Assembly: GCA_964637655.1 (NCBI GenBank)
Contig: CAZWUZ010000001.1
Coordinates: 599-64,598, forward strand
From: an uncultured bacterium
Lineage (GTDB): Bacteria; DAOPZR01
DNA length: 64,000 nucleotides
Reading direction: 5' to 3'
In this document: one piece after another, positions 1 to 26,897 of the stretch
How positions within the stretch are numbered: position 1 is the first letter of the stretch
How the letters are laid out: every line of letters starts with the position of its first letter
Notes under the pieces: model-generated
Told to the model about the DNA's origin: nothing
The model's database searches: none
What the model saw: the letters and a program-made list of their open reading frames with translations, nothing else
Position numbers and translations under genes: made by a program

Positions 1-1125
1 CAGTGATGCCAGGTGTCCGTGCGCCTCAGCGCAATTCTGATCAAGCGCCAGCACCCGCCTGAACATCGCTTCCGCCGCGGCAGTCTTGCCCCGCACCTCG
101 GAATCCATGGCTGCCCTGAGCAGCGCCGTAGCAGCCGGCGTTGCCGCTGTTGCCAGGCGCTGCCTGCACCCCTTGTCATACAGGTCCACCACCAGCTCGG
201 GCGCTGCCCCTGCCTTGACGGCTGCATCAAGCGCCTGCTCCGCAGGGGGAAACGTGCCGCGAACAAGGTAAATCTGCGCCAGCCCCAGATTCGTGAAACA
301 CGCAATGGTGTCGTCAGCAGCAGTCGCCTGCACCCGTTTCAGTTCAGCGACCAGTGTATCTGTCGGGTTGAGCCGGGCCTGGCTGTACAGCGCATGGGCA
401 AGCCCCCGGTTCGCTTCGACAGGGTCGGGCGCAACAGGTGCAGCCGCCGCGAACCGTGCCAACGCCTCCCTTGCCTCGCTGTTGTCGGGGTCATACCGCA
501 GGGCATTCCGATACGCCGCCGCCGCCGAATCCTTGTCCATGCAGTGTTCATGGACCTTGCCGAGCAGCAGGTGGAGCGACGTTTCATCCGGGTGACGGCG
601 CAGCGCCTTCTCACAGATGGCTATAGCACGAACCGGGAAATTTTCTTCGAATGCAACGGACGCCTTTTCCAGCGCAACAGCCACCTCGTCGGCCGCCGCC
701 GGCGGCGGAACGGCAGGCAGTGTATCCGCCGTGGCCACGGCAACAGAAGTGCGTTCCGCCCGGGTGTCTGACCGCCACCACCAGATACCGGCACCCGCCA
801 GCACCGCCAGCACGGCCGCAACCATGTACTGCCGTCCTCTCGCCCGTCCGCCCGGTGTCACAGACGGCAGCGCCTGCTCAGATTGCACCGGCAGTACGTT
901 CACCGGTGCCGGGGCAGGCGCAGGCGCGCTCTTCACCGGCGGTACGACCTCCGGCACGTCGTGCAGCTCCGCGCAATCGCCAAATGCGCTCCACTGTTCT
1001 TCACCTTCACGGCATACCTGCGTGGCAGGGGTGACACGCGCATCGCTGCGGAGCTGGTCCGCGCTGCACGGCCCCTGCACCGCGCTGCCGTCATACCAGT
1101 ACCATCGTATCCCGTTGTGCATCAT
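1..1125 (-). CDS. DUF4339 (GYF-like) / TPR-repeat protein, 5' portion; continues beyond window start
   Basis: Minus frame is open from the ATG at 1125 to position 1 (translated by hand). N-terminus MMHNGIRWYWYDGSAVQGPCSADQL resembles that of the next gene; a TM segment and TPR-like helices follow. The ATG overlaps the upstream stop (ATGA). Confidence 0.55.
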   Translation of the reverse strand, partial: MMHNGIRWYWYDGSAVQGPCSADQLRSDARVTPATQVCREGEEQWSAFGDCAELHDVPEVVPPVKSAPAPAPAPVNVLPVQSEQALPSVTPGGRARGRQYMVAAVLAVLAGAGIWWWRSDTRAERTSVAVATADTLPAVPPPAAADEVAVALEKASVAFEENFPVRAIAICEKALRRHPDETSLHLLLGKVHEHCMDKDSAAAAYRNALRYDPDNSEAREALARFAAAAPVAPDPVEANRGLAHALYSQARLNPTDTLVAELKRVQATAADDTIACFTNLGLAQIYLVRGTFPPAEQALDAAVKAGAAPELVVDLYDKGCRQRLATAATPAATALLRAAMDSEVRGKTAAAEAMFRRVLALDQNCAEAHGHLASL

Positions 1126-2585
1126 CGTCCTCCGAATATCTGCTGGTTACGCAGCAGCTGTTCTGCCCGGTTGTTCCACCGTTCGCGTGTTGGCTGATCG
1201 TTCGCAGCCCTGGCGGCGGCCCGACAGACAGTCACTGCCTGGGGTATCCTGGTCTGCTCCTCCAGGCAGTTGATATACAGTTCGATCACCTGCTGGTCAT
1301 CCGGGGTCGCGCGGTATTGCAGCTGCAGCCAGCGCTGCGCCTTCTCCTGGGCGCGGCGCCGTTCCTTGCGCTTCAACTGGTCGGACATTTCCCGGGCGCG
1401 TGACGACTCATCATACCGGCGCGCTTTGCTCGCCAGCTGGGACAGCAGTTCCCACGCCTCGGCACACTGACCGTTGCGCGAGATCACGCTGCGGCATTTA
1501 CTTTCCGCCTGCACCAGATTGTCACTCGTCATGAGCTCGCGCGCCTCCTGCAGCGTCTGGGCAAGGGCCGGAGTCAGGCCACTGCTGCGCGCACCGTAGC
1601 TGAGGTAATGCCCGAATATCTGCACTGCTGGAATACCCGCCTTGTGTGCTACGACAAATGCCTCAGCCGCCTCAGCCTCCCGGCCAAGCGCCAGGTACAG
1701 GTTGCCCAGTGCCTCGTTGCCTGAAGTTCTGATGTGTTCATCGTCGGTTGCAGCAAGCAGCGCCTTCAGCGCCGCCGCCGTGCTGTCGCCCGGCTGTTCC
1801 CGTGCCTGTGCGATAATCGCGTGCGCACGCGCCATCATGGCACTGTAGTCATCGACGGGTGCTTCCTGGTTTTCCGTGCTCGGTGCAAGTCGTTCGATCG
1901 CCTCCAGCACCTGTTCGTTATCAGGTTCGATGAGCAGCGCATTCCGGTAGTTCCTGAGAGCCGCCTCGCTGTTACCCAGCCGCTCGAGGCCACGCGCCAG
2001 CAGCACATGCGCCTCCGTCATGTGCGGATACTGTTTGATGAGCTGCCGGCATATCGCTGTCGTTTTCGTCGGATAGCGTTCGAGCGCATTCTCCGCCTGC
2101 AGCAGTTGCCGTTGTGCCGCCGCCCGGGTGTCGCCTGCGGCCGCCCCCCTGTCTGCCGCCTGTTCCGCCGGCGCCTCTGCCACGGCCGTTGCCGTCGCCT
2201 GCCGCGTGCTGTTCCAGTACCACCAGCCGCCACCGGCCGCAAACACCGCCAGCAGCGCCGCTCCGGCAGTTTTCCTGCCGATCTGCGCTGCCGCGGGCCG
2301 GGCTGCAGGAACAACCTCATTGCGAACCGTCACAACCCGCACCGGTTCGGGTTTCGTTACCGGCTGCGGCTCCGGTTCGGGCGCCGGTTGTGGCGGCGCT
2401 GGTGCGGGCTCCGGTGGCGCCTGCAGTTCGGCACACGCGCCAAATGCCGTCCACACCTCTTCCCCGGCCGCGCAAACCTGCGTCTCCACCGTCAGCAGCG
2501 GTTCCTGCCGCAGCTGTTCTGCCGTGCACGGCCCCTGCACCGCGCTGCCGTCATACCAGTACCAGAGTTTATCCGCTTCCGTCAT
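1122..2585 (-). CDS. DUF4339 (GYF-like) N-terminal domain, Pro-rich linker, TM segment, TPR repeats
   Basis: 487-aa ORF. WYWYDGSAVQGPCTAEQL motif, PEPAPAPPQPAPEPEP linker, hydrophobic segment, then repeated TPR-like helices. RBS GGAGGTGAGG sits upstream. Confidence 0.65.
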   Translation of the reverse strand: MTEADKLWYWYDGSAVQGPCTAEQLRQEPLLTVETQVCAAGEEVWTAFGACAELQAPPEPAPAPPQPAPEPEPQPVTKPEPVRVVTVRNEVVPAARPAAAQIGRKTAGAALLAVFAAGGGWWYWNSTRQATATAVAEAPAEQAADRGAAAGDTRAAAQRQLLQAENALERYPTKTTAICRQLIKQYPHMTEAHVLLARGLERLGNSEAALRNYRNALLIEPDNEQVLEAIERLAPSTENQEAPVDDYSAMMARAHAIIAQAREQPGDSTAAALKALLAATDDEHIRTSGNEALGNLYLALGREAEAAEAFVVAHKAGIPAVQIFGHYLSYGARSSGLTPALAQTLQEARELMTSDNLVQAESKCRSVISRNGQCAEAWELLSQLASKARRYDESSRAREMSDQLKRKERRRAQEKAQRWLQLQYRATPDDQQVIELYINCLEEQTRIPQAVTVCRAAARAANDQPTRERWNNRAEQLLRNQQIFGGR

Positions 2586-2625
2586 GATTCCTCACCTCCG
2601 CGTAGCGTTCGCGCATCGCTGTTTG

Positions 2626-2880
2626 CTACCTGAACAGAACATACATGCAGTCACCTGCTTCCTGCCACAAGGCAGGATGTGCTGTCATAATCAGCATGAG
2701 TATCAGCAGCAGAGCAATAACTGACAGCATGCTCCGCATGACAAATACATAGTCGCGCCTTTCCGCAGCGGACATCCTGAGATACCTGAACAGTGTATTG
2801 TTATCGATGTGCCGTATGCCGTATCCCATGAGCGGAACTATCACGAACACCGCCGCCCACGCCATGATTGTATCGCTCAT
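2626..2880 (-). CDS. small membrane protein (84 aa)
   Basis: Two hydrophobic helices; 4-nt overlap with the upstream gene. Confidence 0.4.
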   Translation of the reverse strand: MSDTIMAWAAVFVIVPLMGYGIRHIDNNTLFRYLRMSAAERRDYVFVMRSMLSVIALLLILMLIMTAHPALWQEAGDCMYVLFR

Positions 2881-3386
2881 GGTATTTCTACAATCCCCGC
2901 GCGATGCAGTACTGCCGCCGACAGCAGGGCCAGCATGACGGTCAGTACAAGCGTGGTCATCAGCACCCGCGTCCAGAAACGGAGTTCACCCGGCTCCCAG
3001 CCGCACAGATGGTACCAGTAATTCGCGCTGCGCGGCGGCCAATACTCCGCGCCGTACACCGTAAACAGCAGTACCACGGCACTGAAGCAAAACAGCAGGC
3101 ATGCCGGCCGATACTGCGGATAGAATCGTGCGATGCCCATAAATGCAAGCGCCAGCAGACAGCCCCCGAAGAACACCCGCCATGGCACCCCCCGTGTCTT
3201 CATACAATTGGCGAGCATGACCATATGCCAGGCCAGCGCATAGGCAAGCGGCAGCAGCACGGCGATGCCCAGCGCCTGCCACCATGCGGCGCGAATGATG
3301 AGCACCGTAATGCCGGCATACGCCAGCAGCATGCTGACAGCGATTCGTCGCGGCGGCAGTTCGGGGAGCAGTTCACGCCATCGCAT
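2877..3386 (-). CDS. polytopic membrane protein (ORF extends to 3476; likely start near 3386)
   Basis: Hydrophobic helices throughout. An internal Met at 3386 gives an ATGA overlap with the upstream stop at 3389. Confidence 0.45.
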   Translation of the reverse strand: MRWRELLPELPPRRIAVSMLLAYAGITVLIIRAAWWQALGIAVLLPLAYALAWHMVMLANCMKTRGVPWRVFFGGCLLALAFMGIARFYPQYRPACLLFCFSAVVLLFTVYGAEYWPPRSANYWYHLCGWEPGELRFWTRVLMTTLVLTVMLALLSAAVLHRAGIVEIP

Positions 3387-3388
3387 CG

Positions 3389-4138: not shown

Positions 4139-4160
4139 CTTTCCCCTTGCCTGCCGACCG

Positions 4161-5408
4161 TCATGACAGCCATATGCCGCTCTTCTCGAGATGCCACGTG
4201 CCGTTGCTGTACCAAACCTGAATAACATCTCCGTTGCCGTTGAGCGGCCCTCTGATTTCTCCAGTCATTACGTGAAACGATTGTTCGTATTCCAACCAAT
4301 TGTCCACTACCGAGAAGGTGAATATGCCTTCATTGTCATCTGGCAGGAAGTATCTCGTATGGCCGACTGAATGCGCTGCCTCTCTGGCAGGTTCCCTTTC
4401 AAGCGAAAGGATGCGATGATCGATATCCTGGCGACGCCAGAGCATCCCGCATATCATCGCCACGGTATCCTCATTGATACCGTCATATACCCGGATATGC
4501 ACTTCGTCATTGACCAGCATGGTAGTGCACAGGCGCTGCCGCTCAATAATCTTGCCATCCGTATCCTGCGTACCGATAGTTTCCATTTCAGTGCCGATAG
4601 TAACAACACTATCGACTTGCCTGCCAAGATAGATTGCCTGCGGGTGGTACGGTATCTCGACTCGCGGTCCGCTACTCTGCGACATTGGCGCCTGCCGCAT
4701 CAGCCAGTATGCGCCCAGCAGCGGAACCGCGACGGCTATGATGATGATCACTCGCGGCATGCGTGTTACTGCAGGCGCCTCTGTTGTCTCCGTCAGGTCA
4801 GCGCCGCACTGCTGACAGGCAATGGCCTCTGCTGCTACTGTCGCGCCGCAGGCATCACATTCATATTCGTTCGTCGTAATCGCGGATTCCGCTACCTGTA
4901 TCGCCACCGGTGCGTCGATCATTTCGGGTGGGGTGCGCCGCCACGGCAGTACGAGCAGGGCAAGTCCTGCCAAAGCCATGAAGATGCCTTGCCATCCCTG
5001 CCCGTACGCCATCCACCAGATACGCTGGATTCCCGGCGAGAAATACTGTGCCTGCATTGCCAGCGGTGCATACTGGTCAGCCATCAGGATGTAGGTCCAT
5101 GGTGTGCTGATAAGCGAAGGAAGAAAGACGATCAGCAGCGCCACGCCCAGCAGGCGCTGCATATTCTCGCGCAACGCCGCGGCGGGCGGCATCGTTGCCG
5201 GCGGGGCAAACCGCCCGAGGAAGCGCGTCAGCACCAGCAGCACCAGCGCATAGACAACAAGAATTCCCACCATGCCGAACATGGTAGCGTATACATCCCA
5301 CGTGGCGCCGCAGCCCAGCGGGACTGCGAGCGGCGGCAGTGAGAGTATCAGCATCGTGAGGACAAGAAACCGCCCCCCGAGCACCACCACCGGCACCCGC
5401 ACGCTCAT
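4161..5408 (-). CDS. polytopic membrane protein with internal zinc ribbon (CDACG...CQQCG)
   Basis: ORF 4161..5618. Internal start MSVRV at 5408 abuts the stop of the upstream gene. Four-cysteine ribbon ECDACGATVAAEAIACQQCGADL. Confidence 0.5.
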   Translation of the reverse strand: MSVRVPVVVLGGRFLVLTMLILSLPPLAVPLGCGATWDVYATMFGMVGILVVYALVLLVLTRFLGRFAPPATMPPAAALRENMQRLLGVALLIVFLPSLISTPWTYILMADQYAPLAMQAQYFSPGIQRIWWMAYGQGWQGIFMALAGLALLVLPWRRTPPEMIDAPVAIQVAESAITTNEYECDACGATVAAEAIACQQCGADLTETTEAPAVTRMPRVIIIIAVAVPLLGAYWLMRQAPMSQSSGPRVEIPYHPQAIYLGRQVDSVVTIGTEMETIGTQDTDGKIIERQRLCTTMLVNDEVHIRVYDGINEDTVAMICGMLWRRQDIDHRILSLEREPAREAAHSVGHTRYFLPDDNEGIFTFSVVDNWLEYEQSFHVMTGEIRGPLNGNGDVIQVWYSNGTWHLEKSGIWLS

Positions 5409-5935
5409 ACGGCTGCCGTGCGGCGGATGACGTTCTCCGCCAGGTAGCGCGCGCCTGCCAGCAGCAGCAGGCCCAGCACCGCATAGACAAGGATTTCCGG
5501 TTGTGACACCACAACCGCATTCACAATCGTTGTCCCGCTGCCGTTGAGGCGCCCTTCTTCCGCCATCTTCTGCCAGTGCTCGTATGCCGCAGGCGCCAGC
5601 AGCAGCATGCGCGCCCACATGACAATGCCGAGCAGTTTCAGCGCCGCCTCGCTCCAGGCAGTAAGCGTGTCGGCATTCCCCTGCAGCGGTTCATGCACCC
5701 CGCACCAGCGGACGATGGTCTTCACCTGCCAGAGTAGCAGTCCGCCAACCAGCAATTCTGCCAGCGCCTGCGCCAGCATGATGCTCACCGTGCTGCTCTG
5801 GGCGCCCACCGAATCGCAGGCGGGATGCAGCCATACGATGCCACTGGCAAGCAGTCGCGCCCCCCCGGAGAGCAGTGAATAGAGCGCCAGCAATCGCACC
5901 CCGATATGAAACAGCAGTTCACGTGTCATGGACAA
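5405..5935 (-). CDS. membrane protein (176 aa)
   Basis: Four or five hydrophobic helices; tightly packed in the operon. Confidence 0.45.
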   Translation of the reverse strand: MSMTRELLFHIGVRLLALYSLLSGGARLLASGIVWLHPACDSVGAQSSTVSIMLAQALAELLVGGLLLWQVKTIVRWCGVHEPLQGNADTLTAWSEAALKLLGIVMWARMLLLAPAAYEHWQKMAEEGRLNGSGTTIVNAVVVSQPEILVYAVLGLLLLAGARYLAENVIRRTAAV

Positions 5936-5939
5936 CTCC

Positions 5940-6833
5940 TTAGTGCCGCGTACGCTGGCGTCTCAGCCCGCGGATTATGATAACAACAGCAAGCATTCCG
6001 AAAACCAGCCCCGCGATGAAAGCGGGGTTCATCGTCTCGCTTTGCGCATTCCCGGCAGGCACATGGCTCGCCATGCCCATCCGTGCCCCGGAAGTATCCG
6101 TGCTCAGCCGCAGCGGCGTATCTGTCGGCGTGCTCATTGCTGCCGCCAGCCCTGCTTCGTCCATTCTGCCGTCAGCGGCTTCATTGCTCAGTTTCGCGTA
6201 GGTCATGAGGCGGTTGAAAAGCACATCGTCTGTCGGACGTTCGACCGGGGTGTCCTTCCCCGGTTCATGGTTGGACCAGTTGTAGTTCCCGTATCGCTGG
6301 CTGTTGAGTGCCTCTATCTGCGCGCTCGTGTAGTGCGCCTGCTCCATCAGCACGCCGCGAACAAACCGCATAAGCACAATGTCCGTATCAGTAACAAACA
6401 CCGACAATACGCCGCTGAACCAATCGGCGAATATCCGGCCATTCTGCATCTTATCCCGCAGCACTTCCGGGCAGTCGATTTCTTTCTGGTCCTGCCATGG
6501 GTTGTCGCTGTCGTAATCAGGCACCGCCAGTTTCACCAGATACAGTTCACCATTATCCACTACCCAGGTGGCAACATGCCCGCGATAGCACGCAGTGCTC
6601 CAGGTAATATTCCCATCATACTGCGGCCGCGGCACAGCAGGGTTGAGGCGGAAATAGAGTTGCAGCACCGCCTGCGAGTACCAGTCGGTCCCGATGGCAC
6701 ACTCCTTGCCCTGATAGATGAGTCGGTCCGGAATCTGGTCTGTTGCCTGTGCCGGAACTGCCAGCAGCAGGAGCATCGCCAGCAGCGCCGGGATGTAGCG
6801 TATGCTACGCCGTATCGTCATGTGCATGGCCAT
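5940..6833 (-). CDS. secreted protein with C-terminal TM anchor (ORF to 7013; signal-peptide start near 6833)
   Basis: Internal MAMHMTIRRSIRYIPALLAMLLLLAVPAQA looks like a signal peptide. C-terminal hydrophobic stretch followed by RGLRRQRTRH. Confidence 0.5.
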   Translation of the reverse strand: MAMHMTIRRSIRYIPALLAMLLLLAVPAQATDQIPDRLIYQGKECAIGTDWYSQAVLQLYFRLNPAVPRPQYDGNITWSTACYRGHVATWVVDNGELYLVKLAVPDYDSDNPWQDQKEIDCPEVLRDKMQNGRIFADWFSGVLSVFVTDTDIVLMRFVRGVLMEQAHYTSAQIEALNSQRYGNYNWSNHEPGKDTPVERPTDDVLFNRLMTYAKLSNEAADGRMDEAGLAAAMSTPTDTPLRLSTDTSGARMGMASHVPAGNAQSETMNPAFIAGLVFGMLAVVIIIRGLRRQRTRH

Positions 6834-6838
6834 GGCTT

Positions 6839-8113
6839 TCAGAATATCACCGCATCGGGTTCCACGAACGTCAGTACCGTCAGGCAGACCGCGCGCAACA
6901 GCAGATGCAGCGGGTAGAGCAGTTTCATGCTCAGCCGGGTCGCTGCCAGGTAACTTTCCGAGCGTGCCCGCACGATGTTCGAGCGCAGCAGCATCGTGTG
7001 CTTCGACGCGCACCCCTCGCCATGCTGCTCCGAGTCGCGATACAGCAGGAGCACGCGTCCATCCCGCAGCGGGAACATCCGGTCCGGTCGGTCACTCTGC
7101 AACTGGTAGCCAGCCACTTTACCAGTGCGGGCATCAACCAGGCCCAGCGCCGGGAAACCGCTGACATACGCATCGCCGAGTATGCCCATGCTCGCAATGA
7201 ACCGGTTTCCGCACGGCTCCGCCATATGCACCCGGTCGGCAATCGTGTCGAACGTTGCGTCAGCCCGGTGAAACACAAGATCCGCCCGCTCGCTCATATC
7301 CGCACCCGCATTGCGCATGACCAGATGTGTGTGTGTCGCGGTGATAATGCGCCAGTCAGGAATACGCCAGTCGCCGCTGTCCGGCACCTGCGTCAGCAGT
7401 ACATCCATACCGGCAGCACCGCGGTACTCGCCAATCGTCACCCGGTGCGACACTGTTTCCTGCGTCACCTGATACACAAACCGTTCCGTACCCGCTACTG
7501 GGCAGAGTTCATCAATCCTGCCGCTTTCCTGCACCAGCAGTTGCGGCATTGCCTGCCGCCACGGTCGTGTCAGCTGAAGTTGATAGATTGCAGTGCCATA
7601 GGCATAGCAGAGCGTATCCCCCGACCATACCGCCAGTGACGCATACCCAAGCCCTTTGCACGCCAACGGCAGGGAGAGCACGAGTGAATCGTTAGCCAGG
7701 TCGTACACCGCAAGAAAGCCCGTCTCGGAATGAACGCTGTTCACCCATCCGTACTCGCGGCCAATAGCCACAAGATAATCGTTATGCAGCATGGATTGCG
7801 TTTCTATCCGGTTCCCCGGTGCGCACTCTCGCAGGCGGCGGGCTTTGGTATAGGTCACATTCTCCTCGCCGCGCGCAAATACCTGTATCGTGCCATCAGT
7901 CATGGTGATGACAAAGCGATCTATCGCCTCGTCGTAGTTCGCCTCATCCATGTTTGCTTCGGGCTCATTGCTGAAACGCGTGCGGTATTCGCTCCCCACG
8001 GCGATGGTATTCCACGGAAGCGCCAACCCCACCGCCAGCATGCCCGCTGCCAGCAGACAGAGCAGCAGCAGTTGCGGCCAGTAGCGCCGGATGAACTGGC
8101 CGGCCCTGTTCAT
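6839..8113 (-). CDS. N-terminally anchored protein, possibly beta-propeller-like
   Basis: 442-aa ORF. TM segment after MNRAGQFIRRYWPQLLLLCLLAAG; ATGA overlap with the upstream gene. Confidence 0.45.
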   Translation of the reverse strand: MNRAGQFIRRYWPQLLLLCLLAAGMLAVGLALPWNTIAVGSEYRTRFSNEPEANMDEANYDEAIDRFVITMTDGTIQVFARGEENVTYTKARRLRECAPGNRIETQSMLHNDYLVAIGREYGWVNSVHSETGFLAVYDLANDSLVLSLPLACKGLGYASLAVWSGDTLCYAYGTAIYQLQLTRPWRQAMPQLLVQESGRIDELCPVAGTERFVYQVTQETVSHRVTIGEYRGAAGMDVLLTQVPDSGDWRIPDWRIITATHTHLVMRNAGADMSERADLVFHRADATFDTIADRVHMAEPCGNRFIASMGILGDAYVSGFPALGLVDARTGKVAGYQLQSDRPDRMFPLRDGRVLLLYRDSEQHGEGCASKHTMLLRSNIVRARSESYLAATRLSMKLLYPLHLLLRAVCLTVLTFVEPDAVIF

Positions 8114-8781
8114 ACCATTTTCCCAGTCCGCGCAAAGAGCAGCGACTTGAGCAGCCCGACGAGCCATTGCGCCTCGGCCTCTGACACGTACTCCGCCATC
8201 GTTGCCGTTTTCGCTCCATAACAGATAGTCACCACGCCGTCACCGGCATAGCCGGCATTTCCCGTCTGTCGGGCAACCTGCTGCAGTTTGATGGCGCTGA
8301 TCTCCGCTACGGGAATCTCCAGATGCCGGCGCCGCACTATACTCCGCCGGGTGAGGCGCAAACAGTCGCGTTCGATGCGAAGTTCCTGCCGCTCCGTTGC
8401 CTTCGTCAGTATGCCGTACCACATGCCAATGCCGACAAACCAGAAGATGGTTGAGAATGAGGCAAACAGGATACTCGCATGTGCTGCCATGAAGGTCCAG
8501 AAGGCGATAAAGACCGTCCACGTCGTGGCGAACAGAATCAGAAAGGTGTCACCCCAGCCCATGCCCTGCCGCGGCACGGTGATGACGCCGCCGCTCACGC
8601 CTTCCGGCGCAAAGCGCAAGGTGCTCCCCGCCGGCGGCGTGGTCCCGACCGGCTCGGCTGCCGCGACCAGCGCGCTCGCGCGGTGCAGTTCATTGCAGCG
8701 CGTGCATTTCGCCAGGTCGGTCGCCACGTTCACGTTGTCCGCCGTGATCGGTTCCCGGCATGCCGGGCAGAGCAGTTTCAT
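8110..8781 (-). CDS. zinc-ribbon (CPAC...CTRC), TM segments, C-terminal domain
   Basis: MKLLCPACREPITADNVNVATDLAKCTRCNELH, then 3 TM helices and a charged C-terminal domain. Confidence 0.5.
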   Translation of the reverse strand: MKLLCPACREPITADNVNVATDLAKCTRCNELHRASALVAAAEPVGTTPPAGSTLRFAPEGVSGGVITVPRQGMGWGDTFLILFATTWTVFIAFWTFMAAHASILFASFSTIFWFVGIGMWYGILTKATERQELRIERDCLRLTRRSIVRRRHLEIPVAEISAIKLQQVARQTGNAGYAGDGVVTICYGAKTATMAEYVSEAEAQWLVGLLKSLLFARTGKMV

Positions 8782-8797
8782 TGATATGCCTCCTGCT

Positions 8798-9730
8798 TCA
8801 CGGGACTACCTGCCCGGCCAGTTGTCCGGCCCGAAAACGGCGAACCTTGCGGGTCAGCCAGAAATCAAGTACGCCAAGCGCCACAACATTCAGTACCACC
8901 AGGCCAACACAGCCGAGCAATCCGGTCATCAGCAGTGAGATAAATCCTGTCAATCCTGCGCCCATAATGAAGAATCCGACTACAAAAGCAACAATTGCGA
9001 TGCCGCCAATGAAAATGATATTCGCCACAATCCAGCCACCAGCAAGATACAGGATGAATGCTCCCGAAAAACATCCGGAGCAGAGCGACCGGATAATCCT
9101 GATGAGCAGCACCAGTCCTGCCAGTGCGATGAGGCCGGCAACAGCGAACAGGGAATACCGTTTCCATGCCGGCCACGGCCGCGTGATTTCTGATTCTGCT
9201 GCCGGAATCGTCTCCGTCAGGGTCGGCGGGTCAATCACTGACGGTTTGCGCCGCTGCCGCTCCCATTCCTTCCGGAGTTGCTGATAGAACTGACGCGCAG
9301 CACCCTCCGTGCCGCCGATATAGACCACTTTCGTAACACTCAATGCGCACCTGACACGTATCTGATGCGCCTCACTCATCTCGGCGGCCGGGACGAAATC
9401 AAGCGCGTAGATCGCCGGATAGGAGGCGTACCATTTTTCCGGGTCACGCTCGCCGCGCCAGTAGGTGGCAAGTCGCTGGTCGGTGAAAAAGGTGCCGCCG
9501 ACTTCGAAACTCGCATTATTGGCTATCAGGATGACCTGCTCGTTATCGCCCAGCAACCCCTGCCCCTGCAGGAACGCGCGTTCATCCGTCGACAGTTCAC
9601 TCCCTGCCTGCGGTGTCCCGCAACCGGCCAGCAGCATGATGACAAGGCATCCGGCAACCAGCACATGCCATGCGGTTTTGGCCGTCCTCACACCAGCACC
9701 CGTTCTGCAAACCACCGTATGTGTCCTCAT
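8798..9730 (-). CDS. lipoprotein with C-terminal polytopic region
   Basis: Lipobox-like LLAGCG after the signal sequence; 4 C-terminal TM helices. Confidence 0.5.
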   Translation of the reverse strand: MRTHTVVCRTGAGVRTAKTAWHVLVAGCLVIMLLAGCGTPQAGSELSTDERAFLQGQGLLGDNEQVILIANNASFEVGGTFFTDQRLATYWRGERDPEKWYASYPAIYALDFVPAAEMSEAHQIRVRCALSVTKVVYIGGTEGAARQFYQQLRKEWERQRRKPSVIDPPTLTETIPAAESEITRPWPAWKRYSLFAVAGLIALAGLVLLIRIIRSLCSGCFSGAFILYLAGGWIVANIIFIGGIAIVAFVVGFFIMGAGLTGFISLLMTGLLGCVGLVVLNVVALGVLDFWLTRKVRRFRAGQLAGQVVP

Positions 9731-10266
9731 GGTGCATCATTGCTACGCCGACTGAAGAGTTTCCTGATGCCCAGTACAGCATAGATGCAAACTATCCACT
9801 GCCACAGCGAGAGAATGAGGTAGGTCAGCCCGGCAAGAATAATCGTTTTCATCCCGGCGCCGGAGTAGCCCTTGACCGTTCGCGGCATGATATCTGAGGG
9901 TGACGCCGATTCCGCAGCCGCTGCCAGTTGCACGTCTTCCGGCGCTACCTTGAGCAATGCGACTGCGCTCTCAGCGCGATCCTCGCGCACGCGCAGGATT
10001 TTGTTGCGCCCGCCCCAGGCATAATTGAGCGCATTATCCGGCGTGTCGGTCAGTATGCTCTCGATGCCCGCCTCCGCCAACAGTCCGCGCGCCAGTTCCG
10101 CTTCCGGCTGTATATTGTACTCCGCGATGGCTACCGTCTCGAGATACGTCTCGGGCGTTGGCGGCGGACTCCAGGCAAATACCGCCCCGCATTGCGGACA
10201 GGTCATGTCGTCCGGCGCAATGGGGGTCTCGCATACCGCGCAGGGCAGCGTCGTTGTTCGCCGCAT
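9727..10266 (-). CDS. zinc ribbon, DUF2007-like domain, C-terminal TM protein
   Basis: CAVCETPIAPDDMTCPQCG ribbon. The ETVAIAEYNIQPEAELARGLLAEAGIESILTD segment resembles DUF2007. ORF extends to 10341; likely start at 10266. Confidence 0.5.
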   Translation of the reverse strand: MRRTTTLPCAVCETPIAPDDMTCPQCGAVFAWSPPPTPETYLETVAIAEYNIQPEAELARGLLAEAGIESILTDTPDNALNYAWGGRNKILRVREDRAESAVALLKVAPEDVQLAAAAESASPSDIMPRTVKGYSGAGMKTIILAGLTYLILSLWQWIVCIYAVLGIRKLFSRRSNDAP

Positions 10267-10268
10267 GG

Positions 10269-12296
10269 TCAACTCCCCACCCGTGACAGCATCTGTCCGG
10301 CAGTATGTTGCGCGATTTCGCTGGTGGCGCTCACCGCCCATGCCTCCGCACGACTGCGGTAGTACCCGCTGCGGCGCATGTCGCCATACAGCGCCGCGGC
10401 CTGTGCGGCGCCGGCGAAACTCTGCACGAACGCCGAACGCAATTCCTCACTGCGGCGAATGTCTGCGTCGTTCACACCGGGACTGCGTTCACCGGCTCGC
10501 TGCGCGCGGCGGGACAACGACTGCATCCAGTCCTCCAGCGCCAACGCCGCATAACGCCGGTACTGTTCGGCGGACCTCCGGTCACCGCGCTCCAGCAGCA
10601 ACGCTCCGCACAGTTGCCGGTTGTGCGGATTATCCTCCAAACGCGCCGCCAGCAGGAATTGTTCAGTTGCCGCCAGGGTGTCGCCGCGCAGGTAGGCGGT
10701 CAGGCCCGCGTTGTAATGTACCTGCGCATAATGCGGAGCAACCCGCATCAACTGCCGGTAGTTGTCTGCCGCTTCTTCCACCCTGCCCAATTGCAGATTG
10801 ATATAGGCACGTTTGTACCATGCGCCCGGATCGTTGCGGTTGTCTGTCAGTGCTGCGGTAAGCATGGTATGTGCTTCCAGCCATACCGGCCGGTTGTCCT
10901 CGGTTACCGCCCCCCCGGCATTCTGCAGTAGCGCCTCACCGCGTTTGGCCAGCATGTGCGCAGAAAACATTCGCCACTCCAGCAAGCCGACCACAACAAA
11001 GATTCCTGCCAGACTGGCCATGGCAAGGTACTGCCGCGCCTTGACCGGAGTTGCCGTGGTTGTTTCTTCCTCTTCCCTCGCACCGCCCGCAAGGATAAGA
11101 ACAAGGCCAATGACCGTGCCTGCGACAATTTCCATCGGGGGACGTCGGCCGTGCGGCAGGTCAAAAGCCATGGTTGCCAGCAGCGCGGCGCTGCTGAGCA
11201 GGCCGATAAGCAGGTGCCGGCGGAACCCGTTGCGTTCATTGTGCAGTGCGCGCAGGCCGAGATGAAGCACCGCGCCAATACACCATACGGCGAGCACCAG
11301 TCCGACCATGCCCTGCTCCGCGGCAATGGTTGCATATTCGCTGCCGGGCGACTGCATGGTATGACTTACCCCGAGTCGGTGATACTGCGGCGTACGGAAG
11401 CGCGGGAAGTGCGTCGCGAACATACCAATCCCCTGCCCGAAGACCGGGCTATCCGCCCACATCCGCGCCGTCCCGCTCCAAATCACCTGCCGTACCGTGG
11501 TGGCGAATTCACTGGTATGTCTGCTGATCAGCCCGCTCGTACTGGCGATCAGCAGCACCGCGCCGGCTGCTGCGGCAACCAATGCATTTTTGTATCCCGT
11601 ACGAGCCGCGCCGGTCAGTGCCTGCAGGGCGACAAACACGAACAACGCCAGCAGCAGCGCTGTATTCACGTCGGGATTACTGATCTCATAGATGCACCAC
11701 GCAGCGCCAATACTGCACAGGCAGAGCAGCACCCTGAGAAGCCAGTGCCGGCAGGCGAGCAGCATTGCCAGCATCAGCGGTAGCACGCTGGCAATGAACA
11801 GCACCAGTTGGCATGGGCAGCACAAGCCCGCCAGCATCACCGGCATGCCCCATTCGATCACATCGTAGCCCGTATGCTGCAGCAGCGCGTAAACAATGTT
11901 GTAGACGGCCGCCGCCAGCAGCGCGCCGATCAGCAGCAGCAATTCCCGCCGCGTCCTGACATGTTCGTAGACCAGCCAGATGAACAGGATTCCGGTCGCA
12001 TAGTAGGCGGTAGCGGCCAGCGACGGTGCGGTCGGTGAAAATACCAGCGAAGCAACGCAACCGAGCAGCAGGCAGAGCAGCGGCAGCGCAGCCGGCATAA
12101 AACGGAAGCGGATGTTGCCCGCAAGCAGCAGTCGCGCGAACCAAAGACAGGTCATCCCTGCAACCATTACCTGTCCAATCACCGTCTTGATTATGCCGGT
12201 GTCCTCCGTGGACAGGGAGAACACGGTCGCTGTCAGCACAACACACAGCGCCAGACCATACACGACAGTCTGCCGCATGTATTCAGCCGCGTTCAT
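10269..12296 (-). CDS. O-antigen ligase / Wzy-like polytopic membrane protein with C-terminal TPR repeats
   Basis: 675 aa: about 10 TM helices with a large periplasmic loop, then a TPR-like C-terminal ~250 aa. Architecture matches O-antigen ligase family proteins fused to TPR. Confidence 0.45.
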   Translation of the reverse strand: MNAAEYMRQTVVYGLALCVVLTATVFSLSTEDTGIIKTVIGQVMVAGMTCLWFARLLLAGNIRFRFMPAALPLLCLLLGCVASLVFSPTAPSLAATAYYATGILFIWLVYEHVRTRRELLLLIGALLAAAVYNIVYALLQHTGYDVIEWGMPVMLAGLCCPCQLVLFIASVLPLMLAMLLACRHWLLRVLLCLCSIGAAWCIYEISNPDVNTALLLALFVFVALQALTGAARTGYKNALVAAAAGAVLLIASTSGLISRHTSEFATTVRQVIWSGTARMWADSPVFGQGIGMFATHFPRFRTPQYHRLGVSHTMQSPGSEYATIAAEQGMVGLVLAVWCIGAVLHLGLRALHNERNGFRRHLLIGLLSSAALLATMAFDLPHGRRPPMEIVAGTVIGLVLILAGGAREEEETTTATPVKARQYLAMASLAGIFVVVGLLEWRMFSAHMLAKRGEALLQNAGGAVTEDNRPVWLEAHTMLTAALTDNRNDPGAWYKRAYINLQLGRVEEAADNYRQLMRVAPHYAQVHYNAGLTAYLRGDTLAATEQFLLAARLEDNPHNRQLCGALLLERGDRRSAEQYRRYAALALEDWMQSLSRRAQRAGERSPGVNDADIRRSEELRSAFVQSFAGAAQAAALYGDMRRSGYYRSRAEAWAVSATSEIAQHTAGQMLSRVGS

Positions 12297-12326
12297 GCGC
12301 GCCCTTTCCGTTCAGACACACGCAGA

Positions 12327-12599
12327 TCAAGTGCCATACACCACGTTCACAATCAGCGCGTATTCGCCGCCCACCACCAGCGCGCAGGCGAGCACAAAGG
12401 CGAAGAGTTTCATCTCCGCCCACTTGTCATCCCAGAACCTGCCGCGCAACGCCGAGATGAAGTCAGGGGTCAGCATGTACATCAGCGACTCCTTGATCCC
12501 CTCGCTGTCCCCAAACATGCCGCGCAGCAGATACAGATAGCACGGCACATTCAGTATCACCAGCATCGTCAGCAGGAAGGGATGCTCAACCATGTCCAT
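12327..12599 (-). CDS. small membrane protein (90 aa)
   Basis: Two hydrophobic helices. Confidence 0.35.
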   Translation of the reverse strand: MDMVEHPFLLTMLVILNVPCYLYLLRGMFGDSEGIKESLMYMLTPDFISALRGRFWDDKWAEMKLFAFVLACALVVGGEYALIVNVVYGT

Positions 12600-12641
12600 G
12601 CGCTTCTCCTTTGCGCCAATGCCCTTCGCGGTTCACAGCAT

Positions 12642-13247
12642 CTACCCGGTAGTCCGCAGATAATAGCCCGTCCGTGCTGCCGGCTGATACAGCAGCAGCG
12701 CACAGCCGCCGGTCGCTTCGCCGGTCATGATCAGGTAGCCATCAGCACCACGCAGCGCCTCATGCGTCCACCAGTCGGGTTGTGACTCGTATTCCGTCAG
12801 GGCAAAGACAGCATGCGGGCGCGGCAGGGTATCGTTCCCCTCCTGCGTCGTCGCCTGCAGCACCAGATCACCCGGAGTAGCATCGATGTATTCTCCACCC
12901 GCGTACACTGCAATTTTTCCATGCTTCGTCACCCCGAGCGCAGGCACGAGCATAGCAATGTCCGCCTGCTCAGCCGCAAACCGGTACCAGTGGATACCAT
13001 TCGGGCCGACCGAGGTCCGCGTCGCCGCAACATCACGTATGCCGCCCGGCAGCGTGAATTGTTCAATTGCACTCTTCGCACCGCCAAAACGGCACCAGGC
13101 AGTCACCCCCATGTCATACCGCAATGACTCCAGCGCATCTTCACCCGACTGCGTGCAGGTCCATGGCATGAACGGGAGCAGCAGCAGGCAGAGAAACAGA
13201 ACAGCCCCGCCCAGCAGCATAAGCGAGATCCGGTTATCGCGGTTCAT
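12642..13247 (-). CDS. secreted protein, member of a 3-copy paralog family in this window
   Basis: Signal-anchor at the N-terminus. C-terminal PDWWTHEALRGADGYLIM resembles 55518..56078 and 56051..56581. Confidence 0.5.
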   Translation of the reverse strand: MNRDNRISLMLLGGAVLFLCLLLLPFMPWTCTQSGEDALESLRYDMGVTAWCRFGGAKSAIEQFTLPGGIRDVAATRTSVGPNGIHWYRFAAEQADIAMLVPALGVTKHGKIAVYAGGEYIDATPGDLVLQATTQEGNDTLPRPHAVFALTEYESQPDWWTHEALRGADGYLIMTGEATGGCALLLYQPAARTGYYLRTTG

Positions 13248-13268
13248 CGGTTTTCTCCGTTATCGTCA

Positions 13269-16200
13269 TCAGAATATCACCGTGTGGAACATGCCGGACA
13301 TGCTACCGACCGCGTTCCGCTGCCGTACGTACTCCAGCCATGACTTGAGCGCCTGCATGGTCGGAAGGCTGATGACCGCCATACGCGGCTGTACTGCCAG
13401 CCCTGAACTGACCGTACGCATGGTCATCCGCGCGCGCAGCATACGTACCGACTCATTCTCCGTCTCGTCCGGTTCCGGCTTCGGGGCTTGGCGCACCTGG
13501 AAACTGAAGGTATCACCGGCAAACTTGCCGGCCGCTTCCGCCATCTCCCAGATGCGGCGCGGATCGCCCGTCATCCGGTTCCTGGTCGCGCGGATGTGGC
13601 TGCCGGTCGGATTCAAGCGCATAAGTTGCAACAGTGCTTCCTGCCGTTCGCGTGCCGGCAACCATGCCGCCTCGCCCAGTTCATGTATCCGTTCCCAGGC
13701 ATGCAGGTAGTCAGGATCCAGCGCCACGGCAGCACGGAACAGTTCAGCCGCCTCGACGGGCCGTTGCTGCTCGATCCGCAGGTTGCCCAGCAGGTACGCG
13801 ACTCGCGGATTCTGCGGTTGCTCGCGCCGCAGACGTGTGAATACCGTATCCGCATAACCAAGTGCCGTTTCGCCGCCAAACGAATAGCCGCAGCCGAAGC
13901 ACAAATCTTCCATGCGCCCCACCTGTCCGGGGAGCAGTTCGAAGGCCTTGGTGAAATGCACTGCCGCCTCGTCATGCCTCCCCGCGCGCGCAAGTTGGAT
14001 GGCCAGTCGCGCCTGGATGCAGTACGCATCGGCAAACTGGTCGAGTCCCTTCTGGTACAACGGCAGCGCCCGCTTGAGCAGCATGGCACCCGCGTAGCGG
14101 TCTGCCAGTTCAGCCGTGCGCACGCCATCGACCAGCGACGCATAGACCGTGGCCGTGGAATCACCACGCAGTCGCAGTATATCGCGCAGCACTTCGTACG
14201 CCCGCACGCGGTTCCCCGGCTGCTGATCGCCATCCGTCGGATCAATGGCGATCGCTTCGCGCACTGCCGCCTCGGCCGCTGCCAATTCGCCCCGCTGCAT
14301 CAGTGCCACTGCCTTCCAGATCAGCGGGCGTTCCTCGAAGCGGTCGCGTGTCATCAGTTCATCGTAATACGCCAGCAGGTCGGGCGGATTGAGTTGCTGC
14401 AGCAGCACGTGCGCCGAGTCCGACCCCTGATTCTGCTGCAGCAGATAGCGCGTAAGTTGCAGTGCCTCGTCACGACGTCCCGCCTGACGGAGCGAGTCGG
14501 CGAGGTAGTAGAGCGTTGCTTCCCTTTCGTATTCATTGGTCAGCACCGCCGCAAGGTCGGTGTCCGGCCAGATGGCTGCCTGTTCGAACAGTGCGAGCAC
14601 CTGCTGCCACTGCCCGGCACGGTGATAGATTTGGACGAGTTGGCGCGCCTCATCTTCGTAGGTCAGTGCCGTTGACGGGTCACGCTCCGCTTTCGCTTTT
14701 TCCCGCATCGCAGTCATGATGACACGCTGCGCCTCAGCAAGATGTCCGTTATTCAACAGCGGTTCGATAATCTGGCGATACCAGTAATAATGCAGTTGAT
14801 GTTGGACATTTCCCGGCTGCATGAGCCGCAGCCCGTCATCCGCCATCGTCTTCCCCAGTTCCGCCTCCTGCGCTGTTCCGCCCTGCAGCAACTCTCCTGC
14901 TTTCAGCGCCATTTGGCCGAATCCGCTCATGGCATTATCACCGGAATACGGGTCGGGTCTGGCCACTCCGCTGTCGGCCGGCATTGGCCAGGCCGCCACC
15001 TGCCGTACCAGTGCTGCAGCCTCGACAATGCGATCCTCTGCCAGCAGCGCCTGCAGCAGATGTCGGGCGATCATGACGCGATTGGGCAATGCCGGTGAAT
15101 CTGCCAGTGTTTGCTGCGCCAGCAGGCGCAGTTCGTCCGGTTTCCCCTCTTCAAGCATGCGGCTGGCATAGACAGCCCACAGGCCCGACTGCGGCTTGCG
15201 GAGCAGCACCGTACGCAGGAACTGACGCATCGCCGGGCCATGGCCGCGCCGTGCCATCTGTGTGATCACGCCATGCAGGGAATACATCCGGTCCTCGCGT
15301 TCCAGCATCGCCATCGCTTCGTCGATCCGTCCGCGCACTACCAGCCCGAGACAATAATACGCCTGGGCCTCGCGGAACTGCCAGTCGTTCTCCGGCTTGC
15401 GGAACTGCTGCAGGCAGCGCTCGTACAGCGCGAAGCCGTCGGGCGATTCGGTCAGTTGCCACTGTGCGGCCCCGAGGGCGGGCGTGTCGACAGCCAACGC
15501 TAGTTCCCGCGCCAGGCGGCGCGTGGCGTTTTCCTTCTCCATGCTGAATTGCACCGGCAGGCGCAGTGCGCGCTTGAGCAGCACTGCCGCCCGCGCCGGT
15601 CCGATGGCCGTCACCAGGTCAGGGACGTTCAGTCCGCTCCTGCCGTACCGTCTGATTTCCTCGTGCGTGCGCAGGTACTCTTCCAGCACCTGCAGCTGCA
15701 GTTCGAATGCCGCCGCCAGCGAGTCGGGATTGTCACAGGTGGCGATATACGCGTCGAGCATGCCGCCGACCGCGCGCATCGCGCCCTCCGCATTGTAGCC
15801 GCGCTCTTCGTCCGGTAGTGTCGTGGCCGCGGTCTGCAATTCGCGCCAGAAGGTTTCCCGGTCATTGGTCAGCACCGCGCCTGTCAGGCGCAGCGACGCA
15901 TCCGTATCCGCAGCCAGCAGCGGCCACGCATCGGGACCCGGCAACACGTTCCACAGCAGATCGAGATCTGGCGGCATGATCGCCCGCCCCGGCCGCATGC
16001 GATACGCGTACTTCTGCTGCATAAATTCACGGAACAATACGCCCCAGCGCCTGCCTGACTCTGCTGCCGGCAGTTGCGGCTGCTCCTGTTCATACTGCTC
16101 GACGCGCTGCATGAAGAGTTCCTGCGGATCGCTGTCGGTCGCCTCTGCGGTATCCGCTGCCGTCGTGTCGGCAAGTTCCGCCAGTATCGCGCTCACCGGC

Positions 16201-16277
16201 AGCAGTTCGTCCGCCGCCGCCAACGCTGGCGCACCCGCAAGCATGGCGCATACCACTACGATAATCCTCAGGCACAT
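13269..16277 (-). CDS. large secreted TPR-repeat protein (1002 aa)
   Basis: Signal peptide MCLRIIVVVCAMLAGAPALAAA, then helical TPR-like repeats over about 950 aa. Confidence 0.65.
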   Translation of the reverse strand: MCLRIIVVVCAMLAGAPALAAADELLPVSAILAELADTTAADTAEATDSDPQELFMQRVEQYEQEQPQLPAAESGRRWGVLFREFMQQKYAYRMRPGRAIMPPDLDLLWNVLPGPDAWPLLAADTDASLRLTGAVLTNDRETFWRELQTAATTLPDEERGYNAEGAMRAVGGMLDAYIATCDNPDSLAAAFELQLQVLEEYLRTHEEIRRYGRSGLNVPDLVTAIGPARAAVLLKRALRLPVQFSMEKENATRRLARELALAVDTPALGAAQWQLTESPDGFALYERCLQQFRKPENDWQFREAQAYYCLGLVVRGRIDEAMAMLEREDRMYSLHGVITQMARRGHGPAMRQFLRTVLLRKPQSGLWAVYASRMLEEGKPDELRLLAQQTLADSPALPNRVMIARHLLQALLAEDRIVEAAALVRQVAAWPMPADSGVARPDPYSGDNAMSGFGQMALKAGELLQGGTAQEAELGKTMADDGLRLMQPGNVQHQLHYYWYRQIIEPLLNNGHLAEAQRVIMTAMREKAKAERDPSTALTYEDEARQLVQIYHRAGQWQQVLALFEQAAIWPDTDLAAVLTNEYEREATLYYLADSLRQAGRRDEALQLTRYLLQQNQGSDSAHVLLQQLNPPDLLAYYDELMTRDRFEERPLIWKAVALMQRGELAAAEAAVREAIAIDPTDGDQQPGNRVRAYEVLRDILRLRGDSTATVYASLVDGVRTAELADRYAGAMLLKRALPLYQKGLDQFADAYCIQARLAIQLARAGRHDEAAVHFTKAFELLPGQVGRMEDLCFGCGYSFGGETALGYADTVFTRLRREQPQNPRVAYLLGNLRIEQQRPVEAAELFRAAVALDPDYLHAWERIHELGEAAWLPARERQEALLQLMRLNPTGSHIRATRNRMTGDPRRIWEMAEAAGKFAGDTFSFQVRQAPKPEPDETENESVRMLRARMTMRTVSSGLAVQPRMAVISLPTMQALKSWLEYVRQRNAVGSMSGMFHTVIF

Positions 16278-19578: not shown

Positions 19579-19579
19579 C

Positions 19580-21743: not shown

Positions 21744-21744
21744 G

Positions 21745-25227: not shown

Positions 25228-25333
25228 CGTCGCCTCCTTCGCGTGTTTTTCATCATGTGCACGGTGCAGTCTGTCGTTTCTGCCTAAATCCTGCGACTAT
25301 TACGCTTCATTGCCTATGGCAACAGAAGATTGT

Positions 25334-26880: not shown

Positions 26881-26897
26881 GTTCCACCTCGCCTGCG

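Follow-up and report, generated by a model that had tools for sequence, protein, structure and literature searches.

A compact run of minus-strand genes for membrane proteins is located at positions 1-16277 of the stretch of bacterial DNA analysed here (64 kb in total, to be referred to as the window). With moderate confidence, we read this run as the distal tail of a longer, co-transcribed array of membrane-anchored adaptor- or receptor-like proteins, headed by a PadR/HAAS gene pair, whose members are freely gained and lost, and not as a pathway. Judged from the gene layout, the array would cover at least 26 kb, comprise about 26 genes in the window and run off its left edge. One member, the gene at 8110-8781 (genes are named here by their lower coordinate), belongs to a widespread family with a predicted fold in which a PH domain is split by a transmembrane (TM) hairpin.

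Positions 1-16277 are tiled by 16 minus-strand open reading frames (ORFs), 15 of them complete and one (1-1125) truncated by the window edge. From the left edge, the spacings at the junctions are -4, 40, -4, 2, 22, -4, 4, 5-8, -4, 16, -4, 2, 30, 42, and 21 nt. All five 4-nt overlaps are ATGA, no gap exceeds 42 nt, and GGAG-type motifs are found upstream of many of the starts. An earlier note on this DNA had reported 15 tightly packed, co-directional genes with ATGA overlaps, and this layout is confirmed. Co-transcription of the genes is likely, on the grounds of their tight spacing and the overlaps.

The strand assignment is based on ORF length and tiling, domain matches, homologues, motifs resembling ribosome-binding sites, and gene calls in related contigs. 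The GC content by codon position is uninformative in this respect, as the antisense frames mirror the pattern. The same-strand bias spans the whole window, with nearly all of the long ORFs that tile it on the minus strand and a GC skew that is negative throughout. Co-directionality is therefore a regional property, and is not specific to 1-16277.

The products are almost all membrane-anchored and have no assigned function, in agreement with their first description as uncharacterised envelope proteins. Nine of the 16 proteins are without a notable Pfam or NCBIfam match, and among about 15 billion proteins those of the window stand as singletons, all from one NCBI contig of 66.9 kb. Sixty genes were called in the window, and 50 of them have a predicted TM segment, compared to 34% of 1020 background genes (crude Kyte-Doolittle scan, p = 5e-14). 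This background consists of greedily called genes, from crude ORF calls, that flank 80 unrelated loci in other phyla. The window has no tRNAs, and no match to Rfam was found anywhere in it.

The run had been described as a 16-kb operon. The likely co-transcription upholds one part of that description; the other part, an upstream boundary at 16277, is lost. Most of the 217-nt gap at this position (16278-16494) is an imperfect palindrome of about 165 nt (16327-16491) with nested hairpins, the arms being GGTGAGGG...CCCTCACC and CCCTCTCC-CAAA-GGAGAGGG. Its minimum free energy as RNA is -88.3 kcal/mol (z = -4.06), and it is present in one copy in the window, with no Rfam match. The sister species (see below) has no such palindrome in contigs L001 and L085, and its corresponding gap is only 55 nt. 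By this sequence comparison with the sister species, the palindrome counts as inserted DNA of a MITE- or REP-like kind (similar to miniature inverted-repeat transposable elements or repetitive extragenic palindromic elements). No promoter-like site was found in the gap. Since the gap is largely a palindromic insertion, and same-strand genes continue upstream of it to about 26.0 kb, 1-16277 is not a self-contained 16-kb operon.

At the upstream end of the longer run, a PadR-like gene adjoins a gene for a HAAS-TM-TPR protein, and a promoter-like site (26028-26000) is located one small gene beyond the PadR-like gene. There are two such modules in the window (22164-25296 and 28713-31920), in which the PadR proteins share 94% and the HAAS-TPR proteins 50% identity. 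The 28713 protein matches HAAS (PF22564) with E = 1e-9. The PadR-like genes adjoining 22164 and 28713 are 86% and 77% identical, respectively, to a sister-species gene that carries PF03551. A third PadR-like start sequence is found at 40833-40873. A 31-nt repeat with the pattern TTGACA-N17-TAnnAT precedes four gene groups on the minus strand (26000-26030, 31892-31922, 41437-41467, and 61718-61748). This repeat probably functions as a common promoter and operator, possibly one recognised by the PadR proteins.

With this arrangement, transcription would very probably proceed in blocks. The array may start at the promoter-like site near 26.0 kb, before the PadR/HAAS pair, which would control it, and the palindrome may serve as an internal RNA hairpin. 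The region could instead be made up of several independent small units that are merely adjacent on a one-strand replichore of a compact genome. The uniform strand and negative GC skew of nearly the whole window are compatible with such an arrangement, as are the modular gene content and the number of terminator-like hairpins (24, vs 10.2 in shuffled sequences). Most of these hairpins are weak and intragenic, however, and sigma-70-type promoter-like sites are not enriched within 1-18500 (7, vs 6.4 in shuffled sequences). Moreover, promoters could not be accommodated at the five ATGA junctions or in nine other gaps, which measure at most 30 nt, whereas elsewhere in the window the units are divided by gaps of 150-400 nt that bear a recognisable promoter motif. 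We consider separate units unlikely on this basis.

The clearest view of how the array changes comes from the sister species. It is represented by five contigs with 99.7-99.9% mutual identity (GCA_035353495.1, GCA_964517215.1, two JGI metagenome contigs, one of them from 3300010352, and ENA ERZ795026), and it is also present in SRR22388008. A Logan contig, L084, was placed in this species only through its similar level of identity. A second metagenome scan retrieved the sister species again and nothing else. The nucleotide identity to the window is about 80%, the synonymous divergence (dS) is about 0.5, and the ratio of nonsynonymous to synonymous divergence (dN/dS) is 0.23-0.45. By these sequence measures, the window genes are real and are under relaxed constraint.

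The gene order in the sister species begins with PadR and HAAS (91 aa), followed by homologues of 21114, 18334, 19580, and 16495, and then by the counterpart of the 1002-aa protein, TPR-1005. This protein is the best-conserved member (81% identity, dN/dS 0.23). Next to it, in the slot of 12642, is a 256-aa paralogue of the 5940 family (L085), followed by homologues of 12327 (84% amino acid identity, dN/dS 0.43) and 8110, the first 63 codons of 6839, and unrelated small genes. A 3.5-kb block (8800-12331), with genes 8798, 9727, and 10269, is absent in L085-L088, and its flanks are conserved. In L084, the homologue of 4161 is directly followed by the GYF-TPR gene, and 3389, 2877, and 2626 are absent. 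The variable blocks have the same composition as their neighbours. Among the other genes, the 4161 orthologue is 66% identical (P0017, dN/dS 0.41), the C-terminus of the 5405 protein is 93% identical in L084, and the first 56 residues of the 1122 protein are 86% identical in a sister-species contig.

Two of the genes that are retained have decayed. In the 8110 homologue (10001-10699 in L085, and also L086, L087, and L088), the conserved Trp codon of the FSIPFW motif is replaced by an in-frame TAA, and this holds for all contigs that include the position. Recoding of a TGA codon was rejected as an explanation, as the stop codon is TAA. The 6839 homologue is reduced to its first 63 residues.

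These differences bear directly on the possibility of one dedicated multi-protein envelope machine or pathway, with the ribbon/TM proteins (see below) as signature subunits. Tight packing and overlaps of the translational-coupling type are features that such a machine could have, all of the products are membrane-associated, and ribbon/TM proteins are enriched over a crude background. On the other hand, six genes are absent in the sister contigs, a seventh has been exchanged for another, and the 8110 and 6839 homologues are no longer intact. In addition, members of the 8110 family stand alone in 80 genomes, and the ribbon proteins share no homology. A machine of this kind is thus distinctly improbable. 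The set is lineage-restricted and fast-evolving, with cassettes gained and lost between close relatives, which argues that its members are neither one pathway nor obligate subunits of one machine.

The same conclusion is reached with more distant homologues. Conservation of the neighbourhood across genomes, which would be expected for an operon of linked function, is not observed for 8110 in any of 80 genomes, and relatives of the 1002-aa and 5940 proteins are also found in unrelated contexts. A tblastn search with the 60 window proteins against 80 loci (10 kb on each side) finds, beyond the anchor family, only one weak TPR match and one PIN match. Clustering of the neighbouring ORFs at these loci finds only ABC ATPase and histidine kinase families, in 13-14 loci and at variable positions. 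The 1002-aa protein has more distant homology, at 35-38% identity, in a different context. When five soluble parts or proteins of the region were concatenated and used as a HMMER query against 1.84 billion representatives, the 5940 protein was placed in a small family (P0073, P0117, P0139, P0141, P0152, and P0156; 31-37% identity) and the 12642 protein in another. P0073 is found in an unrelated context, and so are the homologues in L002 and L083. For 12642, two homologues (P0093 and P0099, about 35% identity) are on contigs of only about 1 kb. The C-terminus of the 4161 protein matches only the sister-species orthologue, among the matches listed, and the 6839 protein has no match among the best 150. 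Homologues are therefore in unrelated contexts wherever the contigs allow a judgement, which argues against a conserved operon.

The individual proteins are also diverse in their domains. The two at the left end of the window, 1-1125 and 1122-2585, are paralogues (37% identity, BLASTP E = 1e-43) and share a near-identical WYWYDGSAVQGPC motif. Both match GYF_2 (PF14237, formerly DUF4339; gathering cut-off 25.8 bits) and TPR models, so that their original designation as DUF4339/TPR proteins is retained, with the GYF_2 match of the second just under the cut-off. The first has a borderline hydrophobic segment at residues 99-117, and the second is proline-rich from residue 44, just past the GYF domain. 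Word-index homology searches with the GYF-TPR and Wzy_C-TPR queries each retrieved only the query itself. The only hydrophobic segment of the 1002-aa protein comprises residues 1-26, with TPR matches elsewhere. The 12642 protein has weak paralogues at 55518 and 56051 (BLASTP E = 5e-7 and 2e-4).

Two other assignments are less certain. DUF2007 (PF09413) had been assigned to the 9727 protein, and the match is well under the cut-off (15.2 vs 25.7 bits, E = 0.024, profile positions 10-62 of 66). The NCBIfam model DUF2007_rel gives 13.3 bits against a cut-off of 55 (E = 0.078). This assignment is suggestive only. The 6839 protein, earlier called beta-propeller-like, has no Pfam or NCBIfam match and no match to a repeat or propeller family. 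Its single-sequence AlphaFold2 (AF2) model has many beta hairpins, but is unusable at a predicted local distance difference test (pLDDT) score of 38.9.

The 10269 protein had been taken for a fusion of an O-antigen-ligase-like region and TPR repeats. Its TPR matches are in accord with this, and the Wzy_C match (PF04932), with E = 9e-7 over profile positions 22-148 of 149, falls short of the Pfam cut-off (29.2 vs 31.7 bits). PF04932 is precomputed in the database for this protein. A search of PDB sequences with it finds only TPR proteins, and no WaaL- or PglL-type chain. A locus for surface-glycan assembly or protein O-glycosylation could be centred on it, with the protein as a ligase, polymerase or oligosaccharyltransferase and the other membrane proteins as accessories. 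The Wzy_C match, about 12 TM helices and the C-terminal TPR would fit this role, and pseudopilin-like genes elsewhere in the window could supply the targets of glycosylation. However, the proteins scanned across the 64 kb include no glycosyltransferase and none for flippase, chain-length or sugar-nucleotide functions, and 10269 is absent with its two neighbours in the sister species while the flanks are kept. Together with the sub-threshold Wzy_C score and the PDB result, this makes a glycan locus very improbable.

The turnover of genes could also reflect an arms race, with the run being a conflict-type cassette array (polymorphic-toxin immunity or a defence island). Orphans, small proteins, gain and loss of cassettes, and elevated dN/dS are all in keeping with this possibility. 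So is a low-GC patch at 26001-28000 (0.527, vs about 0.61), which has a PIN_3 gene (26150-26632) and two orphan genes and has the window's largest intergenic gaps on its flanks. In comparison, ten proteins of the region have no match to PADLOC models (E <= 1e-3), and a known defence system was rejected on this ground. No toxin, nuclease or NTPase domain is found in the region. The window has no detectable similarity to plasmid or phage records, by which an origin from a mobile element was also rejected, and the variable blocks do not differ from their neighbours in composition. Large TPR, GYF and Wzy_C-like proteins are, moreover, atypical of immunity proteins. A conflict array is accordingly a rather improbable explanation.

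The recurrence of zinc ribbons had also been pointed out. A CxxC...CxxC motif is combined with hydrophobic helices in the 4161, 8110, and 9727 proteins and in a fourth at 58437, as reported earlier and confirmed by motif and TM scans. The ribbons were described as N-terminal, which is correct for 8110 and 9727. In 4161, the ribbon is between TM segments (residues 184-205 of 415) and scores 23.8 bits against Zn_ribbon_3 (E = 3e-5), under the cut-off of 27. Proteins of this type make up 3 of the 16 in the region and 4 of the 60 in the window, compared to 3 of 1020 in the crude background (Fisher p = 6e-5 and 3e-4, respectively), and the enrichment has p = 0.006 when conditioned on the presence of a TM segment.

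BLASTP finds no mutual matches among the four proteins, and their ribbons are of two types, Zn_Ribbon_1/3-like in 9727, 4161, and 58437 and probably MJ0042-type in the 8110 family. The recurrence is therefore that of a small module on unrelated membrane proteins, and not that of a paralogous family. The enrichment supports the notion of a recurrent ribbon/TM architecture, but the proteins are not homologous, and the remark that this architecture is not assigned to any known pathway is weakened by GltJ and ZitP, which are studied precedents. CxxC...CxxC motifs are lacking in the GYF proteins, and the ribbon proteins match neither GYF models nor DUF3426.

The 8110 protein has more than 100 full-length homologues in the HMMER search, with 26-45% identity. 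In an alignment of 41 members, the four Cys residues of the ribbon and Pro50 are invariant, and the hairpin motif FSIPFWxVG is conserved. Zn_ribbon_4 (PF13717) is matched by 10 and MJ0042_CXXC (TIGR02098) by 8 of the 41 at a listing threshold of E <= 0.01 (best E values 3.5e-5 and 7e-5), and the window protein itself matches neither at this threshold. Outside the ribbon, the family is not represented by any Pfam or NCBIfam model. An AF2 model from this alignment has a pLDDT of 92.7 and a predicted template modelling (pTM) score of 0.80. It contains the ribbon (residues 1-34), two strands (56-69), a helical hairpin (76-129), six strands (131-195), and a C-terminal helix (201-219). The modelled fold is that of a PH domain split by a TM hairpin.

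Members of this family are found at 80 genome loci, in a metagenome-assembled genome of the Planctomycetota-Verrucomicrobiota-Chlamydiota (PVC) group, Planctomycetota, many Bacteroidota, Ignavibacteria, Balneolaceae, cyanobacteria, Spirochaetota, and Myxococcota. The nearest homologue (44% identity) is that of the PVC-group genome. This similarity and the five T2SS-G-like paralogues described below suggest that the host lineage probably belongs to the PVC group.

In at least a dozen of the 80 loci, a Hanks-type Ser/Thr kinase ends in the split-PH/TM-hairpin module. The kinase fusions (L051, L054, L058, L059, L061, L062, L064, L067, L069, L072, L075, L078, and L081, with the match near 10001 in most) are in cyanobacteria, Sericytochromatia, Spirochaetota, Myxococcota, and Vecturithrix. 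One of them, L072, has ribbon, kinase and split-PH module in one protein, and another protein, P0015, has three tandem copies of the ribbon and module. The kinase fusions also led to the rejection of Ycf4, a photosystem I assembly factor with two TM helices and a domain, as an identity for the cyanobacterial matches. Fusion to kinases elsewhere would place the module in cytoplasmic, membrane-proximal signalling. The family appears to be widespread and to have no Pfam or NCBIfam model, and no description of it was found in a limited literature search.

Studies of other bacteria offer a role for such modules. The ribbon and GYF domain of GltJ from Myxococcus xanthus bind the cytoplasmic partners MglA-GTP and AglZ, and the ribbon of ZitP binds PopZ, making the ribbon a protein-binding handle (PMC11135422). 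Bacterial GYF proteins typically have membrane receptor modules, are enriched in the PVC group, and have an adjacent ribbon in 44% of cases (PMC11135422). For the HAAS-PadR dyad, a role as an alternative two-component system that senses membrane-linked signals has been put forward (PMC11237479). By analogy with GltJ and ZitP, the proteins of the array may tether or recruit partners at the inner membrane and report on or organise the envelope. The predicted topology would place the two kinds of ribbon, the GYF domains, the split PH domain and the DUF2007-like module on the cytoplasmic side, and the TPR or beta-rich domains on the outer side.

Several points weigh against this reading. Both co-transcription and the 26-kb extent are deduced from gene spacing. 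Transcription could end at the hairpin (16327-16491), and the approximately 95 nt before the TPR gene could contain a promoter that escaped recognition. Only one sister species was found, in short contigs, and the entire comparison depends on it. The adaptor role is drawn from domain analogy. Most members are without homologues or a confident structure, and an enzymatic or structural role is possible for them. Finally, a GYF-like N-terminal motif is absent from 1724 ORFs around the 80 members of the 8110 family, and a partnership between ribbon and GYF on separate proteins (a split GltJ) was rejected as unsupported for this reason.

Even with these points, the membrane-anchored array is our preferred interpretation. 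It is itself ordinary for a poorly sampled lineage rich in membrane proteins, and the boundary, the gene set and the recurrence of ribbons dissolve on comparison. A long, tidy run of same-strand orphan membrane genes in such a lineage should not be taken for a pathway. The modest novelty is in the 8110 family, with its ribbon or kinase head and a split PH domain with a TM hairpin like that of EROS (see below).

The features of the array are listed in Table 1.

Table 1. Features of the array and the fourth ribbon/TM protein. Genes are in the order of transcription, from the promoter-like site to the left edge of the window.
Feature	Position	Strand	Remarks
Promoter-like site, sigma-70-like, strong	26000..26028	-	TTGACA-17-TACTAT, 10/12 matches
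Same-strand continuation	16495..25296	-	gaps <=37 nt
PadR-like regulator	24856-25296	-	homologue carries PF03551 in L085
HAAS-TM-TPR protein	22164-24872	-	HAAS PF22564, E = 5e-9
1002-aa protein	13269..16277	-	signal-peptide-like N-terminus, alpha-solenoid/TPR body
201-aa protein	12642..13247	-	N-terminal TM anchor and ~165-aa domain
90-aa 2-TM protein	12327..12599	-	TM scan; kept in sister species
675-aa protein	10269..12296	-	~12-TM O-antigen-ligase-like (Wzy_C) region and C-terminal TPR
179-aa protein	9727..10266	-	N-terminal zinc ribbon, DUF2007-like region, C-terminal TM anchor; Zn_Ribbon_1 20.2 bits
310-aa protein	8798..9730	-	lipobox-like LLAGC, ~150-aa domain, 4 TM helices; no family match
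223-aa protein	8110..8781	-	N-terminal zinc ribbon, probably MJ0042-type, and predicted PH domain split by TM hairpin
424-aa protein	6839..8113	-	N-terminal TM helix, ~360-aa beta-rich ectodomain, C-terminal TM helix
297-aa protein	5940..6833	-	signal peptide, conserved ~130-aa domain, C-terminal TM anchor and basic tail
176-aa multi-TM protein	5405..5935	-	TTG start; TM scan
415-aa protein	4161..5408	-	3-4 TM helices, internal zinc ribbon, further TM helix, 175-aa C-terminal domain
Three small multi-TM proteins	3389-4138 (249 aa), 2877-3386 (169 aa), 2626-2880 (84 aa)	-	TM scan; no family match above cut-off
GYF_2, proline-rich stretch and TPR protein, 487 aa	1122..2585	-	GYF_2 23.8 bits (cut-off 25.8); TPR_2/TPR_8
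GYF_2 and TPR protein	1..1125	-	375 aa visible, C-terminal part beyond window edge; GYF_2 31.7 bits (cut-off 25.8); TPR_14/TPR_19
Fourth ribbon/TM protein, 179 aa	58437..58976	-	CxxC-N11-CxC, then 3-4 TM helices; Zn_Ribbon_1 17.5 bits

The rest of the window contains genes of several other types. Two pairs of orphan membrane proteins are paralogues (17015-18337 and 19580-21142, 28% identity; 52042-54165 and 60073-61701, 46% identity), so that the region grows partly by local duplication. Five paralogous proteins resemble T2SS-G (pseudopilin-type) proteins of the type II secretion system (32040-32723, 54218-54829, 54899-55501, 58973-59596, and 62492-63238), with 38-62% identity over the C-terminal region of about 100 aa, and an ATPase similar to T2SS-E/PilT is located at 34711-35793. 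Three successive genes at 37635-40632, which overlap by at least 4 nt, encode a DUF1257-like protein, an AAA ATPase of 518 aa and a radical-SAM-like protein. A 2186-aa protein (43068-49628) has repeated right-handed beta-helix/NosD regions and a C-terminal FlgD-Ig-like domain. The small protein at 61855-62166 has two CxxC pairs (MKCSICRTGE...CDNCGE) and may resemble zinc-finger antitoxins of the MqsA/YgiT type.

The proteins of the array can be compared with several known systems. In GltJ (AgmX, of Agl-Glt gliding), as in the proteins here, N-terminal zinc ribbon (ZnR) or GYF modules, cytoplasmic in GltJ and predicted to be so here, are carried by membrane-spanning proteins. The GYF proteins of the array fit the surveyed ZnR/GYF class, in which an N-terminal GYF domain is followed by a membrane-associated or receptor-like part, often beside receptor-like TM proteins (PMC11135422). 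There are also differences from GltJ. The ZnR and GYF modules of the array are on separate proteins and are not joined by a linker in a single chain, and a TonB-C domain, MglA, MglB, AglZ, and Glt genes were not detected in the scanned window proteins. The HAAS-PadR dyad is matched at the head of the array, and twice in the window, by a PadR-like gene that adjoins one for a protein with N-terminal HAAS, TM and sensor-like parts. The fused part here is a long TPR region, in contrast to the PspC, Toastrack or LiaF-type domains. With O-antigen ligases and Wzy_C proteins that have TPR repeats, the 10269 protein shares a multi-TM region, a Wzy_C-like loop and the repeats; it differs in its score below the family cut-off, in having no glycan-synthesis genes nearby, and in being dispensable in the sister species.

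The 8110 protein is similar to ZitP of Caulobacter crescentus in having a short N-terminal ribbon with four Cys residues, probably of the MJ0042 type, followed by a membrane anchor. In contrast to ZitP, it has no DUF3426, and the part after the ribbon is predicted to be the split PH domain with its hairpin. PH membrane proteins of the STM3941/DUF2244 type also have a two-helix hairpin, followed by a PH-like beta sandwich and a C-terminal helix. Their matches to the 8110 protein are far under the cut-offs (E = 0.005 for STM3941 and 0.21 for DUF2244), and the 8110 protein has, in addition, PH strands before the hairpin (residues 56-69) and, in the family, an N-terminal ribbon or kinase.

In its predicted structure, the 8110 protein is also similar to EROS (CYBC1), the eukaryotic chaperone of NOX2, in which the PH fold is also interrupted by a two-helix membrane hairpin (PDB entry 8kei, chain D). 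The identity in the structural alignment is only 8%, the bacterial protein has an extra zinc ribbon, and a search of all PDB sequences with the family profile (E <= 10) did not retrieve EROS. The resemblance may be convergent or very remote. As a speculative proposal, which we regard as unlikely, the family could comprise bacterial EROS-like adaptors, provided that the resemblance reflects function. These would dock onto client membrane proteins, at the TM and cytoplasmic parts of the latter, and link them to signalling. Their heads would be interchangeable, with an MJ0042-type ribbon in the PVC group and Bacteroidota, whereas cyanobacteria, spirochaetes and myxobacteria would use a Hanks kinase, and the member here would serve the neighbouring receptors together with the GYF-TPR proteins. 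The 8110 family is a testable candidate for a bacterial role in signalling close to the membrane or in the docking of clients, and its structure may be a counterpart to that of EROS.

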